A stretch of DNA of 29,017 nucleotides from a bacterium (GCA_041946805.1 JBHGBC010000068.1:1-29017); one strand, 5' to 3'; shown: positions 5,617-21,465, numbered from the stretch's first letter. Program-made: numbers and translations. Notes: generated by a model not told the origin, from the letters alone.

Positions 5617-7326
5617 CTATCCGGTCTGCGAGGTCAGGGAGGCCGGGGATCCGTTGATCACGTCTTCCATGGTCTGAATATGATAACTGTATCCCTGTTC
5701 GGTCAAAAACCGCTGCCGCTTTTGGGCGAATTCCCCCTCGCTGCTGTCGCGGGTGATCACCGAGTAAAACATCGCGATCTGTCCGTCGCTTTTGGGGCGC
5801 AGGATCCGTCCCAGCCGTTGCGCTTCTTCCTGCCGTGAGCCGAAGGTGCCGGAGATTTGGACGGCCACGTTGGCTTCGGGCAAGTCCACGGCGAAATTGG
5901 CCACCTTGGAGACGACCAGGCGGGTGATTATCCCCTGCCGGAACTGTTCGTACAGTTTTTCCCGCTCCATGTTGGGGGTTTGTCCGGTGATCAGGGGGAT
6001 ATGGAAGGCGCCGGACACGATCTTGAGTTGCTTGAGATATTGTCCGATGATCAGCACGCGGTGTTCTTTGTGCTGTTCCAGCAGCGATTCGAGCACGTCC
6101 AGTTTCAAGGGATTTTCCGAGGCGATGCGGTATTGCGCGCGGAGGGGCGACATGACGTACTCGCGGCGTTGTTCAAGGGGCAGCGGGACGCGGATCTCGT
6201 GGCATTGCGCCTGGGCGATCCATCCCTGTTTTTCCAACGCTTTCCAGGGGATGTCAAAGCACTTGGGGCCGATCAGGCTGAAAACGTCCGTTTCCAGGCC
6301 GTCCTCCCGCACCAGGGTAGCAGTCAGGCCCACCCGCCGCCGGGCCTGGATGTCGGCCGTCATGCGGAACACGGGGGCGGGAAGCAGGTGCACTTCGTCG
6401 TAGATGATAAGGCCCCAGTCCTCCGATTCGAACACCGCCAGGTGCGGGTATTTTTCCGACTTTGGGCGGCGGTAGGTTAGGATCTGGTAGGTGGCGATGG
6501 TCACCGGACCAATGTCCTTGCGTTCCCCGCTGTACTCGGTAACGTCCGCGTCGCGCAGCGTGGTTTTTTCGAGGATTTCCCGTTTCCACTGCCGCAGGGC
6601 GACGATGTTGGTGACCAGGATCAGGGTTTGGCGCTTCAGTTCGGCCATGACGCCCAGGCCGATGACCGTCTTGCCCGCCCCGCAGGGCAGCACGATCACC
6701 CCACTGCCGCCCGCCGCACTGCCACCCCGGTAAAACGCCGAGACGGCCGCCTTTTGGTAATCCCGCATTTGAAACGGCGCGCCCGACTCCAAGGCCGGGG
6801 AGAGCGACAATTCCAGCGGCGCGCCTTCCACGTAACCCGCCAGGTCCTGGACGGGAAATCCCAGTTTGATCAGTGATTGTTTCAGTCGGCCGCGGTAAGC
6901 CCCCCCCACTTTCAGCGTCCGATCGTCCAGGCGTTCCTCGACAAACGGCTGAGTGTTTTTGTGCCGGCGGATTTGGTCCAGCAGCAATGGATCTTGGCTA
7001 CGCAGTACCAGGGAGCCGCTCTCGCGTTCGAGCACCAGGCGGCCGTAGCGTCCCATGTATTCCCGGATGTCGAGCTCGACGTTTTCGGGGATGGGATACC
7101 GGGAAAAGCGGCGCAGTCCTTCCAGGACATCGTCCGGGGTCAGCCCGGCGCTGGCGGCGTTCCAGAGCGACAGGGGGGAGATGGCGTAGGTGTGGATATG
7201 TTCCGGGCACTTGATCAATTCCGCGAATCCGCAGAGGGTGTCGCGCGCTTCCTCGAAGGCGGGCGAGTCCACCTCGAGGAAAACGGTCTTGTCGCTTTGC
7301 ACGATTAAAGGCTTGACAGACGCCAT
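5617..7326 (-). CDS. DNA repair helicase XPB/Rad25/Ssl2-like (SF2)
   Basis: RDYQ Q-motif, LPCGAGKT Walker A, YDEVH, GLTATLVREDG (RED motif), SKVANFAVDLPEA, SRQEEAQRLGRILRPK. Confidence 0.96.
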   Translation of the reverse strand: MASVKPLIVQSDKTVFLEVDSPAFEEARDTLCGFAELIKCPEHIHTYAISPLSLWNAASAGLTPDDVLEGLRRFSRYPIPENVELDIREYMGRYGRLVLERESGSLVLRSQDPLLLDQIRRHKNTQPFVEERLDDRTLKVGGAYRGRLKQSLIKLGFPVQDLAGYVEGAPLELSLSPALESGAPFQMRDYQKAAVSAFYRGGSAAGGSGVIVLPCGAGKTVIGLGVMAELKRQTLILVTNIVALRQWKREILEKTTLRDADVTEYSGERKDIGPVTIATYQILTYRRPKSEKYPHLAVFESEDWGLIIYDEVHLLPAPVFRMTADIQARRRVGLTATLVREDGLETDVFSLIGPKCFDIPWKALEKQGWIAQAQCHEIRVPLPLEQRREYVMSPLRAQYRIASENPLKLDVLESLLEQHKEHRVLIIGQYLKQLKIVSGAFHIPLITGQTPNMEREKLYEQFRQGIITRLVVSKVANFAVDLPEANVAVQISGTFGSRQEEAQRLGRILRPKSDGQIAMFYSVITRDSSEGEFAQKRQRFLTEQGYSYHIQTMEDVINGSPASLTSQTG

Positions 7327-7385
7327 GTGATCTCTTACGCCTCCAGGCCCGGGTAAATCGGCCGGTATTCACAGTGGAAACGTAT

Positions 7386-7414
7386 AGTATACCTGGAGAA
7401 GGCCGTTTTTCGAA
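7386..7414 (-). promoter_or_regulatory. Putative sigma70-type promoter for the XPB operon
   Basis: Minus strand TTCGAA-17 nt-TATACT, about 60 nt upstream of the ATG. Confidence 0.4.
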
Positions 7415-7504
7415 GAGAATGACGGGGAAGGGAGGGGATGACGGAAATGGGAAGGTTGGTTTGATCAATGAGCGAGGCTCAAGGCGTTACCGGTTCTTTT
7501 GCGA

Positions 7505-8284
7505 TTAATTACTTTGGGGTGGCATAGGAGGTTGGCGGATAGATTGGAGGCGATGCTGATCCAAATACTTTCTCATGTAGGATTTGGCTTCATCAATATT
7601 CTGTTGGTGCTCATCCATTTCATTTCGCTCTAACTTTCGGGAAATGAATTCCCCTTTTTTATTCCGTGACAAGGTCGCGATGGAAATCGGGCCGTTGACA
7701 CCTCCCGGATTCACGTCGATGGCGTGCTGAATCGTCCAAGTGGCCGCGAAAATGCCGTCCGCTAAATCGGGTTGTTTTTCTTCCCAAAAAACTCTTTTTA
7801 AAAATGCCAAAAATGAATCGGTAATATGGATGGTCGATCCCATTGAGACAAACCAGGAATTGGGTGTTTTAATTTCAGGTTGGAAATCCTCCACCGCAAA
7901 TTCACATAAAAATTGATTCGTTCCTAATGGGAAAGCGAGTAAAGCACCCAATCCACCGGGTTTCAAATGCGTTGAGTTCATATCGTCAAGCATACACCGG
8001 CACAAATCCTTGGTGATCTGTATATGGGATATTTCGATTTCTTGCTGATTGACTTTTCGGATTTTTGAAAATAGATGATTTTTGTAAAAATCTTGGATGA
8101 TTTGATGATACCGTTGCTTCAGACCGACGGAACCAGTGGCCGTTAAAATGATTTTATTTTCTATTATTTCGATTTTTTCGGTTGTTTGTTCGATAATACG
8201 CTCATTGAAAACAGCACTGGTCGACGAACTGTCGGCCCCGACCACCACCCCATCGGTACAAAGAATGCCAACAATCGCAGTCAT
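7505..8284 (-). CDS. Proteasome-beta-like Ntn-hydrolase (putative threonine protease)
   Basis: M-T-AIVGILCTDGVVVGADS gives Thr1 after Met removal and Asp17. Lys in TTEK, ATGS and SMGS match proteasome/HslV beta-subunit motifs. Confidence 0.8.
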   Translation of the reverse strand: MTAIVGILCTDGVVVGADSSSTSAVFNERIIEQTTEKIEIIENKIILTATGSVGLKQRYHQIIQDFYKNHLFSKIRKVNQQEIEISHIQITKDLCRCMLDDMNSTHLKPGGLGALLAFPLGTNQFLCEFAVEDFQPEIKTPNSWFVSMGSTIHITDSFLAFLKRVFWEEKQPDLADGIFAATWTIQHAIDVNPGGVNGPISIATLSRNKKGEFISRKLERNEMDEHQQNIDEAKSYMRKYLDQHRLQSIRQPPMPPQSN

Positions 8285-8286
8285 CT

Positions 8287-8718
8287 CTACCCTTTGAATA
8301 CGCTATGGACTCTCATTTCCGGATAGGCTTGATAAATCGATGAAACCAATTCCGTGAAGCTCAAGCTCCGCACATATTCAGAAACATTCGTGAGGTACTC
8401 TTTCACGAGGGGCGGGAGTTGATTCCAGATGGCGTTTCCCTTCTCCAAACCTTGTTCGGTCAGTTCATAAAGGTTTTTCCGGCCATCGAATTTCACGATG
8501 GCGTCACCGGTTTTGGCGAGATCTTCGATTGTTGAATAGACCTCCTTGTCAAACGGTCCATAATCATACGGTTTAAAATCAAATTGAGGGCCGTCAATAT
8601 ATTGAGGAATATTTTTGTCGATCAAAAAGAACATTTTTTGAACTTGAACAGGCGTATACGTATGGCAACACTTGCTCCCTGCCGCTAAACCCGCTAGAAC
8701 CGTCTCTTTCTTGTTCAT
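8287..8718 (-). CDS. SocA/Panacea (DUF4065/YwgA-like) winged-helix antitoxin-like protein
   Basis: VQKMFFL...FDFKPYDYGPFDKEVY...L...YELTEQG pattern. AAGGAG RBS supports ATG 8718. Stop lies 2 nt before the Ntn-hydrolase start. Confidence 0.75.
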   Translation of the reverse strand: MNKKETVLAGLAAGSKCCHTYTPVQVQKMFFLIDKNIPQYIDGPQFDFKPYDYGPFDKEVYSTIEDLAKTGDAIVKFDGRKNLYELTEQGLEKGNAIWNQLPPLVKEYLTNVSEYVRSLSFTELVSSIYQAYPEMRVHSVFKG

Positions 8719-9126
8719 GATTCTCTCCTTGATCACTCTGCTGGGATCATTCTATATAGCAAATTTTGTGCCGAAAAGTACGCAGGGCATTTTCGTGCCA
8801 ACCCACCAATAGATCCCTGTGATCGCTTGATCCGCTTCCAGTATATTCGAAAATACGGAAATTCAGAATTTTTATCAAGCCTCAAGAACATGATTGGTTT
8901 TAGGAGTCGAACCAGGGAGCGGATTTGAACAGCCATCATCCCATCCTCGCCGATGTCATTCAACTCCATCCATCCTGCGGGATTAAAGGCCACGCAGGAT
9001 CGTTTACCATGGGAGTGTTTGTCCTTGAAGATGTTTCCCCCAAAAATCGCCGCCTTCCCGCTTGAATTTTGGGGGAAATCCGTCCACAATAAGAATGCTT
9101 CGGAAACGCGGGGGGATTTTCGCGGC

Positions 9127-9155
9127 TTCCGGAGAGGAGAAAGCGCGGTTATAAT
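9127..9155 (+). promoter_or_regulatory. Putative promoter of tRNA-Val
   Basis: TTCCGG-17 nt-TATAAT (perfect -10 at 9150-9155), 20 nt upstream of the tRNA. Confidence 0.55.
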
Positions 9156-9175
9156 CAAGCCATTCGAACAGGCAC

Positions 9176-9249
9176 GGGCGATTAGCTCAGTTGGTTAGAG
9201 CGCCAGTATCACAAACTGGAGGCCACTGGTTCAAGTCCAGTATCGCCCA
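9176..9249 (+). tRNA. tRNA-Val (anticodon CAC), CCA not encoded
   Basis: Acceptor GGGCGAT/ATCGCCC + discriminator A; D-arm GCTC..GAGC; anticodon stem CCAGT/ACTGG with loop ATCACAA; T-arm ACTGG-TTCAAGT-CCAGT. Confidence 0.95.
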
Positions 9250-14241: not shown

Positions 14242-16266
14242 TCACATCAATCCCATTTCGTGCAAATAAGGGGAAGGGCTGGTATTGTATCCGAGAATAT
14301 TATTGACGACTATAAATAGTATTTTTTTCTTTGTTCTCGTTAATGCGACATACATCAATCGTCTTTCTTGTTCTAACTCTTCCCTCGTCTCCGCATATTT
14401 AATAGGCCATATGCCATTATTTACATCAAGCACAATAACATTTTCAAATTCTTTTCCCTTGGCTCTGTAAGCCGTCATTAAATGGACGTGAGCTTCGATC
14501 TCCTGATCAATAACATCATCACCTTGATTGAGTGATTCGTGCACTTTTGCAATTGTTTTTTGTATGTGTTTGATGAATTCCATAAAATTATCATCATATT
14601 TCCTGGCATATTCCGCCAAATACATGAATGGAGGATCTTTGTAAAATATGTCATCTTCTGACCGAACATAATTCTGTTGAAGACCTTTCATATTTGTACT
14701 CATTAAATCTATTGCTTGTGTTACCGTTACAGCACTGAGTAAGTTTCCAACTCCAAAAGATAATTCATCCCGTAAATTATGAGGAATTCCATGACATTCC
14801 ATTAATACTCGTACTGCTTCATTGGTATTTTTAGGCATTGTTTGGTATAAAGCGTTTTTTATTGCGGATCTATCTTGGGAATTCAAAGGGAAAGGTCTTA
14901 CATAATTACAGCAAGTCACAAAATTATTGATTACATCATTTGGATGACGATCAATATCTTTTGTTGCAATCATCACAAGTATATCTTTCATTCCTTCATA
15001 TGCTTGGCTTAATAAGATATTTAAATCCTCTTTTGCATAAAAAAATATATCATTTGAAATTAACGTGATTTGGGTGGGTATAAGTTGACTTTTTTTTCTT
15101 GAAATGATACCCAATTCTTTGGGATTGGTCGAATTAGACGCATGATTCAATATTAAATTCAACGCATCGAGGTGGGTCGGGAAATTAATAATTTTTACCT
15201 CAGCCTCGCCCTGCACTGTCGGGATAATCGTTTTAGTGATTCGATAAGTGTTGTGATTGATCAATCTCATTGAAAGTTCGACAATATTTTTAGGGTATCT
15301 ATAATTCTTCTCAAGTATGAATGTCTTGAAATTTTCATCAAAATACAATTCAGGCTCCACAATGAATCGAGGAGTTGCCCCTCTCCATTCAAAAATGGCT
15401 TGATCATCATCTCCGACAATAGAAAGATCACGTTTGTGTAGTTCACATATCTTTTTTATAAGAAACAAATCAAGAGGATTTATATCTTGAAACTCATCTA
15501 TGAAAACCGTATGATAGCGATTCGGTTCTGGAATACATCGATTTTCATATTTTCTCTCCAATTGAATCAAGCACCAATATTTTTGATCTTCAAAAGTGAT
15601 TATATTAGACAAGAACAAGTGATCCGTGCACTTTTTCCAAAATTTGGAAAAATTTATTAAATTTTTGGCAACTTCATCGATTGATTGACCTAATAATTTC
15701 AAGGTGCATAGAGGTTCGAATATATTTTTTTTAAAAAATCTTTCAAGATCACTGTTTCCTATCCACTCTAAATGTTCAGGAATACTATCAAGCATATCAT
15801 GTCGAAATCCCAAGGTTTTTAGAATATCGAAAATCGACAAAATATCTTTATAAGCATATTTTTTGTTCTCAAATATTTTTGTCAATCTTTTGCTTTTTGC
15901 CCAAATTGGCCTCAAAATATTATTGAAAAGAAAGTACCTTTCATTATCGGAATCAAGTAAGCGCAATCTACCATTCACATTTCTCCTCAAATATTGATAC
16001 CCCCAGCTATTTAGAGTTTCAATCATGCAACGATTTCTCAATATTCCAAAACAATCGTTCGACTCAATCCTTGACTTTAATTCGTCTCTGGCAGCTCTCG
16101 TAAAAGTGATAATAAGAAATTTTGCATTACTCATTTCCGGTTCGCTTAGTATAGCTGCACATTTGTGCAAAATACATATGGTTTTTCCTGTTCCCGCAGG
16201 AGCCAACAGCCGAGTGAAACGTTCCCTTGAATTAATATAGGCTAGTTGAGAAGAGTCCAGAAGCAT
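14242..16266 (-). CDS. UvrD/Rep-family SF1A helicase, AT-rich and orphan
   Basis: APAGTGKT, ITFTRAA, IDEFQD, VGDDDQAIFEWRGA, LEKNYR, MTAYRAKGKEF, ERRLMYVALTR. Confidence 0.93.
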   Translation of the reverse strand: MLLDSSQLAYINSRERFTRLLAPAGTGKTICILHKCAAILSEPEMSNAKFLIITFTRAARDELKSRIESNDCFGILRNRCMIETLNSWGYQYLRRNVNGRLRLLDSDNERYFLFNNILRPIWAKSKRLTKIFENKKYAYKDILSIFDILKTLGFRHDMLDSIPEHLEWIGNSDLERFFKKNIFEPLCTLKLLGQSIDEVAKNLINFSKFWKKCTDHLFLSNIITFEDQKYWCLIQLERKYENRCIPEPNRYHTVFIDEFQDINPLDLFLIKKICELHKRDLSIVGDDDQAIFEWRGATPRFIVEPELYFDENFKTFILEKNYRYPKNIVELSMRLINHNTYRITKTIIPTVQGEAEVKIINFPTHLDALNLILNHASNSTNPKELGIISRKKSQLIPTQITLISNDIFFYAKEDLNILLSQAYEGMKDILVMIATKDIDRHPNDVINNFVTCCNYVRPFPLNSQDRSAIKNALYQTMPKNTNEAVRVLMECHGIPHNLRDELSFGVGNLLSAVTVTQAIDLMSTNMKGLQQNYVRSEDDIFYKDPPFMYLAEYARKYDDNFMEFIKHIQKTIAKVHESLNQGDDVIDQEIEAHVHLMTAYRAKGKEFENVIVLDVNNGIWPIKYAETREELEQERRLMYVALTRTKKKILFIVVNNILGYNTSPSPYLHEMGLM

Positions 16267-18524: not shown

Positions 18525-19976
18525 TCATCTGCGCAGGCGGTCCCAAGAGGCAATCAAGTCATCTACCCGGGCGCCGGGCGGGATTTTCAATGGCAGGCCG
18601 GCCAAGGCCAAGGTCAAAGTCCGGCCGTGATGATTTAGCTCGGCCTGGGCCAGAGCACGGCCCCGCCGCGACAAGCGTTCCCAAGTAGTTTCCTGCATGG
18701 GATAAACCAGCATCGCGGTGATGGGCGCGGTTTCAAAAAGCGCGGCATAGGCCAGGACCTGGTGGACATCATGACGGTGTTGCTCGCGGAGATCCTCGCC
18801 CATCTCGGCCCAACGGTGGTCGTCCAGTTCCTCAAAATGGCTTTTATATTTGGCATCAATGATGAGTACATGATCTCCGTTGTGGACTACAATGTCCGGC
18901 GCGAGACTCTTCAGGCTGCTCTGCCCTGCCTGGCTCCAGCGAATTGGGATGGTCGTCTCTCCCGCAAAAACCGACCGCACGTGTCCGCCAAATTGATGAG
19001 CCCAAAGCCGGGCCAGGCATTCCACCCAGCGTTCAAAGAGCTCGTGCATGGGCAGACACCAGGCCAGACCGTCGTTTTCACTAGTATCGCCCAATCCGCG
19101 CTCATCCACCAACCAGCCCAATGCCTGGAGTCCGCCACGCAGATAATCGGAAGGCAATCCTTCGAACAGCAGCCAACGATCCAGAATAGAATGATCGGGC
19201 ACTTGAGATCGGATATGACGCAATTCGAATAACAGGGATTCGGCGGCAAGGGCCAAATGCCGCGCAATGGTGTCATGGTTGCTGAAAGGGATCAGCGAAA
19301 ACCACACCTTTTCTATTCCCCACCGCAAATAACTCTGGAGCAAGAGATCCGGTCCCAAGTCTGAAAAGCGGCAAGGGAGTTGATGAAACGCTCCGTGGGA
19401 GGCCAGTTCTGTCGCATACCGAGTCCAAAGGATCTGCCCGCGGGGACTTTGGCGCACTTCTTCCCGCATCCGGAATCCTCGGCGGATTTCCTTTACGAGC
19501 CGGCTCAAACGAGTGAGGATGGGTCCTGCCAACACCCAGGGAGGCACTTCACGCGCGCTTCCGGGTACCAATGGCAATGATAAGATCCGGGGGGCCGCCG
19601 ACCATCCCACCTGCTGCAACAGAAGGCCGATGCCATCCCAATCGTATCGCGGCCGCACGACGACTCCCGTAGTGATTTTTCGAGTATCGGGAGCGTAGAG
19701 CGGTACCGCGCCGATAACCCCACCTGGGCGTAATCGCACGGTCATTTCATAATTGGCCAGGGCAAGTTCCGATGAAATGTTCAGGGCGGCCAACGAGTGT
19801 GAATTGGCCGCGAGAAAATTCTCCGCATAAGATCCCCGTAACGGTTGGCGTTTGGAATCCCCCAACAAATGGCTTACCTCCACCGGACTCCCTTGGTCGG
19901 AAAGGCGCACCAAAGGTTGTAGCTTGGGATGTTGATACACCCTCGGTTCAGGAGAGGGATTCCGCTTCCGGGCCAT
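18525..19976 (-). CDS. McrC-like restriction subunit (PD-(D/E)xK nuclease)
   Basis: PRGQILW, MHELFERWV, LAPDIVV...IIDAKYK, DVHQVLAYA, MLVYP. Overlaps the McrB-like gene by 29 nt. Confidence 0.88.
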   Translation of the reverse strand: MARKRNPSPEPRVYQHPKLQPLVRLSDQGSPVEVSHLLGDSKRQPLRGSYAENFLAANSHSLAALNISSELALANYEMTVRLRPGGVIGAVPLYAPDTRKITTGVVVRPRYDWDGIGLLLQQVGWSAAPRILSLPLVPGSAREVPPWVLAGPILTRLSRLVKEIRRGFRMREEVRQSPRGQILWTRYATELASHGAFHQLPCRFSDLGPDLLLQSYLRWGIEKVWFSLIPFSNHDTIARHLALAAESLLFELRHIRSQVPDHSILDRWLLFEGLPSDYLRGGLQALGWLVDERGLGDTSENDGLAWCLPMHELFERWVECLARLWAHQFGGHVRSVFAGETTIPIRWSQAGQSSLKSLAPDIVVHNGDHVLIIDAKYKSHFEELDDHRWAEMGEDLREQHRHDVHQVLAYAALFETAPITAMLVYPMQETTWERLSRRGRALAQAELNHHGRTLTLALAGLPLKIPPGARVDDLIASWDRLRR

Positions 19977-21465
19977 GATTCGCGATTGTCCCCTCCAGCC
20001 AATCCAGATAGGCGTGCAATTCCGATTCGCACATACCCAGGCGTCCCTCCAGCAAATATTCGTGAAGCAAAGGTATCAATTCATGCCGTAATCGCCGCGC
20101 AAGTTCACCTTCGTTTCCCGCCAAAAAGTAAGCATGCCCCGGGATCAGGACGAGGGCATCGTTGGGAGCAAACTGAGTGAAAATATCCAGGAGTCGGCCA
20201 AAAGCTTCGGTAGCCAGGGGGATGCCCTGCCGTTCGATCACAGCCAGATCCGGCCACAGGTCCACAAAAGCGAATCGGCGGCGCACGGCCAGATCCAGAA
20301 TGGCAATCGATCGATCGGCGGAATTCATCGTACCCAGAATGTATAAATTCTGGGGAATCTGAATGAATCGGGTTCCATCCGGAAGGGGATAGGGTAGCTG
20401 AATCGCGCGCTCTTCGTCACTCCCGATTTCCCGGGGTTCAAAAAGATAGATGGCTTCGCCCAGCACTTTCCCCAAATCGGCGCGATTGATCTCATCGATG
20501 TGCAGCAAGTAATTTCGCGACGGATCCGCATGCGCAGCCAGGATGGATTGAACTAACCAGCCCGCCTTGATCTCGAATTGCAAATTGGATTTATTGACAT
20601 CGGGAGTGATCCCCGCGATGAAGGTTTCATAGGTTACGGCCGGGTGGAATTGGATTGACATCCCGTGGTTTTGAAATTTCTTCTTCAGCATTTCAACCGC
20701 CATGCGGGTTTTGCCGGTTCCCGGAGGTCCCTGCACAATGACAAACCGGCGTTCCCTCAGCAAGGCGAAAAGGGGATCTAGATGAGTACACGGGAACAAA
20801 TGAGAACGAAGGGCATTGATCAAATCCTCGAAATCGGATTTCGCGGCGGCCATCGGTGTCCAGCCCCGCTCCCAGGCATAAAAATCCAGAAACGAGGAGA
20901 TCACCACTTGTGCCTTCTCAAGATTTTCAGGGACCTCGACCGCGGCATAGATGTAATTCCCATACCGTTTGATTACACTTTCAAAACGAGACCAAACTCC
21001 AGCCTGAATTCGCGGAAAGGATTGGGATAGGTTGGTGGGATCGGGCTTGGCCCACATGGAGACCTGTTGCGTGGAGTCCAGGTAGCGGCGCATCGCGTGA
21101 AGATAGCGGGCGTGACCCGGGCGTCCTAGGATTTGTTCATCCGGAGCCAGGCCCCGAGTACCACAAACCAAAGTCAGCAAAGAACCGGCTTTTTGTTCTT
21201 GTTCTTCACCAACAGGAAACCAGATCAGGGACATGCCCCCATAGACGCCGCTGGTGGGACTATCGGGATGAATGAAACCCGCGAAAGAAACCTGGTCTTC
21301 ATCCGGCATCAAAACCACCCGCGGGGCTCGTTCCGTTCGCTTGGGATACCGTTCCCCGAATAACGCGTCGAGCGCACTTTTGATAGTTTCCGTCAAATCG
21401 TCCTTATTCGAATCCTTTGGAATCCCGGCAGCGAGTAGGCGAGCAAGATTGGCGATGCAGTCCAT
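19948..21465 (-). CDS. McrB-like AAA+ GTPase restriction subunit
   Basis: QGPPGTGKT, IQFHPAVTYETFIAG, IDEINRADL, GTMNSADRS (NxxD signature), AVRRRF. Confidence 0.92.
   Translation of the reverse strand: MDCIANLARLLAAGIPKDSNKDDLTETIKSALDALFGERYPKRTERAPRVVLMPDEDQVSFAGFIHPDSPTSGVYGGMSLIWFPVGEEQEQKAGSLLTLVCGTRGLAPDEQILGRPGHARYLHAMRRYLDSTQQVSMWAKPDPTNLSQSFPRIQAGVWSRFESVIKRYGNYIYAAVEVPENLEKAQVVISSFLDFYAWERGWTPMAAAKSDFEDLINALRSHLFPCTHLDPLFALLRERRFVIVQGPPGTGKTRMAVEMLKKKFQNHGMSIQFHPAVTYETFIAGITPDVNKSNLQFEIKAGWLVQSILAAHADPSRNYLLHIDEINRADLGKVLGEAIYLFEPREIGSDEERAIQLPYPLPDGTRFIQIPQNLYILGTMNSADRSIAILDLAVRRRFAFVDLWPDLAVIERQGIPLATEAFGRLLDIFTQFAPNDALVLIPGHAYFLAGNEGELARRLRHELIPLLHEYLLEGRLGMCESELHAYLDWLEGTIANHGPEAESLS

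Follow-up and report, generated by a model that had tools for sequence, protein, structure and literature searches.

A widespread gene pair of a proteasome-beta-like Ntn hydrolase and a SocA/DarG-like winged-helix protein as a candidate toxin-antitoxin-like module

A small gene encoding a winged-helix protein and a gene encoding a proteasome-beta-like Ntn hydrolase form a pair that is real, widespread and strongly conserved. The reading we favour, with evenly balanced confidence, is that this pair would be a type II toxin-antitoxin-like module, in which the protease may act as the effector and may be bound and held in check by its winged-helix partner. The pair was analysed in a 29,017-nt stretch of bacterial DNA (hereafter, the window), whose relevant features are the following:

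8287..8718, minus strand: winged-helix protein gene, 143 aa, distantly SocA/Panacea-like and DarG C-terminal-domain-like; predicted antitoxin or regulator (profiles, model with pLDDT 95.7, fold search)
7505..8284, minus strand: proteasome-beta-like Ntn hydrolase gene, 259 aa; predicted effector (profiles, model with pLDDT 94.0, fold search, conservation)
8725..8730, minus strand: Shine-Dalgarno-like AAGGAG, 6 nt 5' of the ATG of the winged-helix gene (sequence)
8285..8286, minus strand: intergenic gap of 2 nt, from stop to next ATG (sequence)
7422..9041, no strand assigned: low-GC acquired segment carrying the gene pair (composition, congener comparison)
5617..7326, minus strand: XPB/Rad25-type helicase gene, downstream of the pair; flanking host gene outside the module (profile match)
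9176..9249, plus strand: tRNA-Val(CAC), upstream of the pair; flanking host gene outside the module

The start of the winged-helix gene was placed at the ATG at 8718, an alternative GTG at 8736 giving a protein of 149 aa. The 2-nt gap suggests translational coupling of the window pair; in 147 homologous tandem pairs the gap ranges from -4 to +25 nt, and is mostly between -4 and +9. The GC content of the winged-helix and protease genes is 0.44 and 0.42, versus 0.61-0.63 in the XPB gene, its partner gene and a TPR gene, and GC at third codon positions is 0.51 and 0.45, versus 0.75-0.78 in the same three genes, in agreement with the compact, lower-GC two-gene operon of the preliminary description. 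The latter had also placed the operon between XPB and tRNA-Val as an insertion. The congener G001 has both host genes internally on contigs, but on different ones and each with other neighbours, and no segment matching positions 7422-9041 was detected; the window copy is therefore an acquired low-GC segment at a synteny break, and the idea of a simple, clean insertion between the two genes was not borne out. A repeat scan of the flanks revealed neither att sites nor terminal repeats around the window copy, no operator-like repeat stood out 5' of the pair, and the window scans for promoters (5 sites versus 3.0 expected) and terminators (2 versus 2.6 expected) gave results at chance level. Positions 6000-9204 are matched with 0 differences by one independently assembled contig, which may derive from the source sample, and 2 of the 35 genomes of the source phylum carry the module at high score. 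Among the 28 window ORFs scanned by profile, none encodes an alpha subunit, HslU, a transglutaminase or an ATP-grasp protein, as had been noticed from the sequence, and the single other PF00227 gene of the same genome is located on a different contig, next to an AAA+ gene (HslVU-like). Elsewhere in the window, 5-13 kb from the module, are found a UvrD/GajB-like helicase gene of very low GC (0.34; 14242-16266, minus strand) and a McrBC-like pair (18525-21465, minus strand).

The downstream protein is predicted from its conserved residues to be a catalytically active threonine protease. It matches Pfam Proteasome (PF00227) above the cut-off (E 1.2e-8; 35.3 bits versus 22.4) and scores 32 bits against TIGR03634, for which the cut-off is 224. 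With its model (pLDDT 94.0), which includes helices H1/H2, the fold search retrieved proteasome beta subunits at Z 20-21 (best Z 21.4, rmsd 2.8, 183 residues aligned), together with Anbu (Z 20.0, 214 aligned), HslV (18.8), BPH (18.2) and Connectase (12.7), at 12-18% identity. Residues T2, D18, K37 and G51, which correspond to Thr1, Asp17, Lys33 and Gly47 by alignment and by the definitions in PMC8665760, are conserved in 252, 254, 256 and 255, respectively, of 256 near-full-length homologues. Met1 directly precedes Thr2 in 239 of the 256, with no propeptide, and the GS motif is kept at G149 in 253 and at S150 in 198 of them, so that the catalytic features and missing propeptide read earlier from the window protein are found across the family. 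Ser150 is presumably the counterpart of proteasome Ser129, from an alignment with an HslV-like protein; Asn192 and Gly195 appear to stand in the places of the auxiliary residues Asp166 and Ser169. The chain ends in a long C-terminal helix (220-248) and a Pro-rich tail; residues 250-256 are encoded at about 7514-7537 of the window, on the minus strand. At 50% identity, the family comprises 972 clusters at E<=0.001, 670 at E<=1e-10 and 193 at E<=1e-30, the weaker tiers of which may take in other proteasome-like families. No PADLOC family was convincingly matched by the protease family, PHROGs offered no useful family, and a viral fold library returned just generic proteasome/HslV-like matches at 8-19% identity. 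No match to the protease was obtained in 50,697 phage records or 72,556 plasmid records.

The upstream protein had been described as Panacea/SocA-like. This stands as a distant relationship, to SocA/Panacea and also to the C-terminal domain of DarG; membership of DUF4065 at the Pfam level does not, since the window protein scores 17.1 bits against SocA_Panacea (PF13274, DUF4065; E 0.011), below the cut-off of 25.7. At E<=0.01, SocA_Panacea is matched by 57 of 116 partner homologues (best 1.1e-5) and PadR by 30 of the same 116, and 3 of 120 homologues, among those listed, bear a precomputed PF13274 label. The top fold match of the winged-helix model (pLDDT 95.7) is the DarG C-terminal domain 7yk3_D (PDB 7YK3; rmsd 3.8, 133 residues aligned, 14% identity) at Z 10.7, a moderate value for a mostly helical protein and one with which the sequence profiles concur; generic winged-helix regulators come next at Z <= 8.1, the best-ranked of them over about 80-90 residues. 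PADLOC models PDC-M19A, DarG (C-terminal part) and one LmuC model are matched by 116, 111 and 12 of the 116 homologues, respectively. In the Atlas, the partner aligns with SocA_Panacea cluster models at TM 0.73 over 133-134 residues (predicted versus predicted), and its distant plasmid matches are annotated as SocA/DUF4065; in 50,697 phage records no match to it was found. The QKxxFL...YxYGPF signature noted beforehand is present in the window protein as QKMFFL and YDYGPF, with K28, F31, G54 and P55 invariant in 148 of 148 paired homologues; these invariant QK..F and YGPF residues are those of the SocA/DarG-type core. The C-terminal motif YPEM..NSVF is conserved as well. Within the GP motif, G and P are invariant in all 148 and the third residue is F in 141, rather than the V of GPV, which Kurata 2022 (PMC8832971) gives as the Panacea signature. 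The below-threshold profile score, the GPF in place of GPV and the likeness to DarG and SocA thus make the partner a Panacea-like protein of a separate SocA/DarG-CTD branch, not a Pfam member.

More distant branches of the partner domain were also observed. In one of them the domain is fused to DUF488 (L063:3518-4342, L215, L216, L239, L241, L243-L246; DUF488 was Pfam-checked for L063), and this branch probably corresponds to the PADLOC candidate PDC-M19A. At L216 and L245, the DUF488 fusion gene is followed by one for an unnamed protein that has an ITVKTYP motif close to its N-terminus. Another branch is C-terminally extended and has no protease neighbour (L213, L214, L242, L198; proteins P0433 and P0437); most of its members conserve a D..AI..DW..VG.DL motif in the extension, and at L198 the extended gene comes after a terminase-like gene.

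Pairing of the two genes was found to be near-obligate. The protease loci compared comprised the best 80 among 150 matches in genomes, the best 80 among 354 in metagenomes, and each of the 6 viral ones. After leaving out 10 of these 166 loci that lie at contig edges, the winged-helix gene was present at 155 of the 156 informative ones, confirming the co-occurrence that the preliminary description had called for. It lies directly upstream in tandem at 152 loci; at the remaining three, the genes are convergent (L076, L143) or split by an IS1595 transposase (L111). The sole unpaired informative locus (L057) encodes a protease without the catalytic N-terminus. All-against-all ORF clustering revealed no third conserved gene in the 166 loci, the next real cluster occurring in 10 of them; large antisense ORF clusters were considered as further conserved genes and rejected as shadows of both module genes. 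A proteasome-winged-helix fusion (P0438, a single sequence among 17 longer-protein matches) was likewise discarded: its frame is lost within the winged helix, so that it reads as a frameshift artefact.

The reverse test, in which the partner profile was run against 1,238 genomes of four phyla with the five genomes known via the protease left out, matched 28 non-seed genomes at E<=1e-8. In 15 of these, the partner gene abuts a proteasome-like gene, intact or as a remnant; the other 13 encode longer forms, four of them C-terminally extended and nine DUF488-type or long-frame (L248 was checked for absence of the protease). Nine of the 15 pairs, all from the Chloroflexota scan, contain a divergent protease clade: the protease at L230 shares 20% identity with the window protein, and the four that were scanned match PF00227 above its cut-off. 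On viral contigs, 18 partner loci were found, of which 11 have the protease, 3 retain its first ten codons, 1 lies at a contig edge and 3 are without it.

The loci span 17 phylum-level labels, methanogenic archaea included, and these labels change 30 times on the tree versus a minimum of 16, which suggests horizontal transfer of the pair. Both genes are under purifying selection, with median dN/dS of 0.10 (38 pairs) and 0.09 (40 pairs) out of 75 pairs, the remainder being saturated. Conservation across phyla is strong and alike for the two proteins (mean identity 45% and 42% in 148 pairs), and their pairwise identities correlate with r 0.77 (148 pairs; shuffle maximum 0.19), a correlation that linked inheritance alone would also predict. 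At four loci the tandem order is broken (convergent L076 and L143, divergent L228, split L111), which precludes co-transcription. The link between the two genes is thus independent of co-transcription and agrees with every model that has the two proteins acting jointly.

The pair is a mobile module, carried in IS1595 elements and in prophages. In genome G037, a 2,476-bp IS1595 element with terminal inverted repeats and 8-bp target duplications contains the transposase and the pair as its sole content, and is present in several copies. The copies were recorded as L031, L033, L034, L054, L210, L226 and L227. The flanking 8-mers of L033 and L054 are swapped, suggesting recombination between copies; L031 and L034 have common flanks and could represent a single site that was assembled in duplicate, and two of the copies carry an identical internal deletion of 675 nt. 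IS1595-like transposases lie near 9 of the 166 loci, two of which (L050 and L066) have a canonical Panacea gene close by. On viral contigs L188, L194, L164/L190 and L197, the pair or the lone partner gene is placed like a moron within the DNA-packaging block, either directly following the large terminase gene or adjacent to the portal gene. Integration at tRNA genes was considered as a general rule and rejected, a tRNA being found within about 600 nt at 6 of 75 genome loci.

The neighbourhood comparison recovered the conserved pairing, and the defence-island enrichment that the preliminary description had proposed to look for was weak. Restriction/Abi genes make up 8 of 134 nearest ORFs (7 loci) versus 2 of 97 distal ORFs (>5 kb; Fisher p 0.20) or, among annotated ORFs only, 8 of 52 versus 2 of 44 (p 0.10); neighbour ORFs were picked by a greedy rule in which wrong frames are frequent, and the distal ORFs were drawn from the same loci, which makes the control conservative. 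Numerous copies of the pair lie among housekeeping genes. In five Thermoanaerobaculia/Acidobacteriota loci (L032, L035, L047, L049, L065), the pair occupies one site with high dS. There it is tail-to-tail with a moaD-moaE fusion bearing a ubiquitin-like ThiS domain (Pfam-checked in L035 and L047), and at L040, L078 and L079 the pair flanks thiC; both adjacencies probably reflect insertion-site history.

Decay of the two genes bears on which of them may be harmful. All five partnerless protease remnants lack Thr1 and the catalytic N-terminus (L057, L221, L223, L226 and L227, the last two representing one deletion). Intact partner genes, in turn, were found beside structurally broken proteases (L191-L193, counted as one event, and L165) and alone (L195, L197). 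At L191-L193, the protease is cut after codon 10 by a rearrangement, for which misassembly is possible; L141 has a winged-helix gene identical to that of these loci and an intact protease. The one case of a frameshifted partner with an intact protease (L046) comes from a record that resembles a long-read assembly, in which such errors are common. Point lesions number five in the protease versus one in the partner, near the expectation from gene length, and several may be long-read assembly errors; moreover, deletions from the upstream side would take the partner and the start of the protease together even without selection. The asymmetry lends weak to moderate support to the protease as effector, and is better evidence against the reverse arrangement.

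In the favoured toxin-antitoxin-like reading, both genes would be translated together, with the partner first. Removal of Met1 would expose Thr1 of the protease without a propeptide step, and the enzyme would for that reason need an inhibitor supplied in trans; the SocA/DarG-like domain of the partner may be that inhibitor and perhaps a sensor too. Once the partner is lost or displaced, for instance upon phage infection or element loss, the protease would be free and might then cut a conserved host protein independently of ATP and stop growth. The architecture is that of type II systems, i.e., a conserved two-gene operon with no further conserved gene, patchy spread and carriage by mobile elements. 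Known relatives of the partner behave in a compatible manner: the DarG C-terminal domain occludes the active site of the DarT toxin (PMC11481870), and toxins are directly neutralised by stand-alone Panacea, for which a sensor role has been proposed (Ernits 2023, PMC10440598). Counting against the toxin-antitoxin reading are the four loci that are not co-transcribed, which is unusual for type II, the L046 case, the housekeeping surroundings, the vertical-looking retention of sites, the weak defence excess, a protease family with no convincing PADLOC counterpart, and a partner below the Panacea cut-off. Complex prediction of the two proteins gave scores of 0.33, 0.06 and 0.26, with a median of 0.26 versus a mark of 0.32, and points neither way. 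Of the two branches left open by the preliminary description, the one with the protease as toxin has modest support from gene order, mobility and the gene-decay pattern, and the one with a SocA-like adaptor has no specific support. A role in anti-phage defence, also raised there, is plausible, given that the pair travels as cargo of prophages and IS elements and that restriction/Abi genes are in excess, though not significantly, next to it.

In the adaptor model, which we consider unlikely, the winged-helix protein would bring a phage or host target to a private, non-toxic, ATP-independent protease, or activate it, in the manner of SocA-SocB-ClpXP. SocA is indeed a proteolytic adaptor (Kurata 2022, PMC8832971), a sensor role is proposed for Panacea (Ernits 2023, PMC10440598), and the equally strong conservation of both proteins across phyla, together with survival of the pair when rearranged to convergent or divergent orientation, would suit such a partnership; however, the 166 loci hold no conserved third gene as a possible substrate, the partnerless protease remnants are all without Thr1, and other Panacea antitoxins act by direct binding, independently of ClpXP/Lon (PMC8832971). 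It is less probable still that the winged-helix protein binds DNA to repress the operon, perhaps being cleaved by the protease as in ImmA/ImmR, and that the enzyme serves a benign function in housekeeping or stress. The PadR matches, the regulators ranking after DarG in the fold search at Z 7-8, the one divergent locus (L228) and the vertical inheritance of some copies speak for this possibility, but the DarG domain aligns over 133 residues versus about 80-90 for the best-ranked regulators, the invariant QK..F and YGPF belong to the SocA/DarG-type core, and neither a conserved regulated cargo nor an outstanding operator-like repeat upstream was found.

Instead of degrading proteins, the enzyme might also act as a transpeptidase or amidase, adding the partner or another tag to targets or removing it, as a proteasome-like fold need not mean proteolysis and Connectase is a ligase (PMC8665760). 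The fold is nevertheless far nearer to proteasome beta subunits and Anbu, at Z 20-21, than to Connectase, which scores Z 12.7, and the model contains helices H1/H2. In favour of such an activity, the YPEM..NSVF tail of the partner is conserved and Asn192/Gly195 presumably replace the auxiliary Asp166/Ser169; a similar tail motif, however, occurs in DUF488 fusions without the protease and is thus probably structural, and we regard this activity as very unlikely, a little more so than the repressor model. The reverse arrangement, with the winged-helix protein as toxin and the protease as an antitoxin that destroys it, as in RosmerTA, seems scarcely credible. Protease antitoxins do exist (RmrA; PMC10440598), yet winged-helix genes remain intact where the protease is broken or absent (L191-L193, L165, L195, L197), and the known relatives of the winged-helix fold are antitoxin domains.

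Comparison with described systems places the module beside several of them. PanAT is likewise a two-gene module with the small gene first, patchily distributed across bacteria, archaea and phages and with a related partner fold and a GP motif; it differs in that the window partner is below the Pfam cut-off and has GPF versus GPV, and in that one partner fold is kept here and many are found in PanAT. The term 'proteasome' is missing from the main texts of Kurata 2022 (PMC8832971) and Ernits 2023 (PMC10440598), and 'proteasome', 'Ntn', 'HslV' and 'PF00227' from those of their supplements that were searched. DarTG has, in the DarG C-terminal domain (PDB 7YK3), the best structural match of the partner, a domain which binds and blocks its toxin; here, in contrast, there is no macrodomain and no ADP-ribosyltransferase, and the domain stands alone beside an Ntn hydrolase. 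The type VI system SocAB of Caulobacter has the same domain superfamily and a link to proteolysis, but SocA uses the host ClpXP to destroy SocB, whereas here the protease is encoded by the module and a SocB-like gene is missing.

On the protease side, Anbu, HslVU and the 20S proteasome share the fold, at Z 20.0, 18.8 and up to 21.4, respectively, but with 12-20% identity, and no transglutaminase/ATP-grasp/alpha-E genes (Anbu), HslU or alpha subunit are conserved near the module in the window or the 166 loci; the Anbu operon as given in PMC5666114 is missing here. Fuchs, Alva and Lupas (2021, PMC8665760) described 22 new prokaryotic proteasome homologues, for which no genomic context or co-occurrence was found. 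Their group II (PMI, PHD, WPH) resembles the module protease in its propeptide-less proteasome-beta fold, the Thr1/Asp17/Lys33 triad with Gly47, the lack of an AAA+ partner, the long C-terminal helix as in Anbu and WPH, and the presence in bacteria and Euryarchaeota. By its C-terminal helix and its bacterial and euryarchaeotal spread, the module protease would probably belong to this group; none of the accessions listed for 28 of 30 module proteases is among those of the 22 family representatives (PMI-1 to 6, PHD, WPH). No description of a proteasome-like/winged-helix pairing was found in the literature searched, although a recent one is possible, subscription papers and bioRxiv supplements having been outside its reach. 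The module has a toxin-antitoxin architecture, but its proteasome beta fold was not found among described toxins.

We consider it possible, at somewhat less than even confidence, that this is the first toxin-antitoxin or anti-phage module with a proteasome-fold threonine protease as effector and a SocA/DarG-like sensor switch, in a partnership that would span at least two divergent proteasome-like clades in bacteria and archaea and would assign some of the orphan proteasome homologues a function in biological conflict. The near-obligate partner from an antitoxin superfamily provides a functional lead for proteasome homologues that were left without gene context in PMC8665760 and, as a protease family of about 670 clusters (E<=1e-10) has such a partner, its function becomes approachable with two small genes. 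Should the protease be the toxin, the proteasome fold would join the effectors of toxin-antitoxin systems, with an Ntn protease that lacks a propeptide and is kept under control by a separate inhibitor; should the partner be an adaptor, the pair would be a minimal system of ATP-independent targeted proteolysis. Either outcome bears on the role of simple proteasome relatives and on the workings of SocA/Panacea/DarG-type domains.
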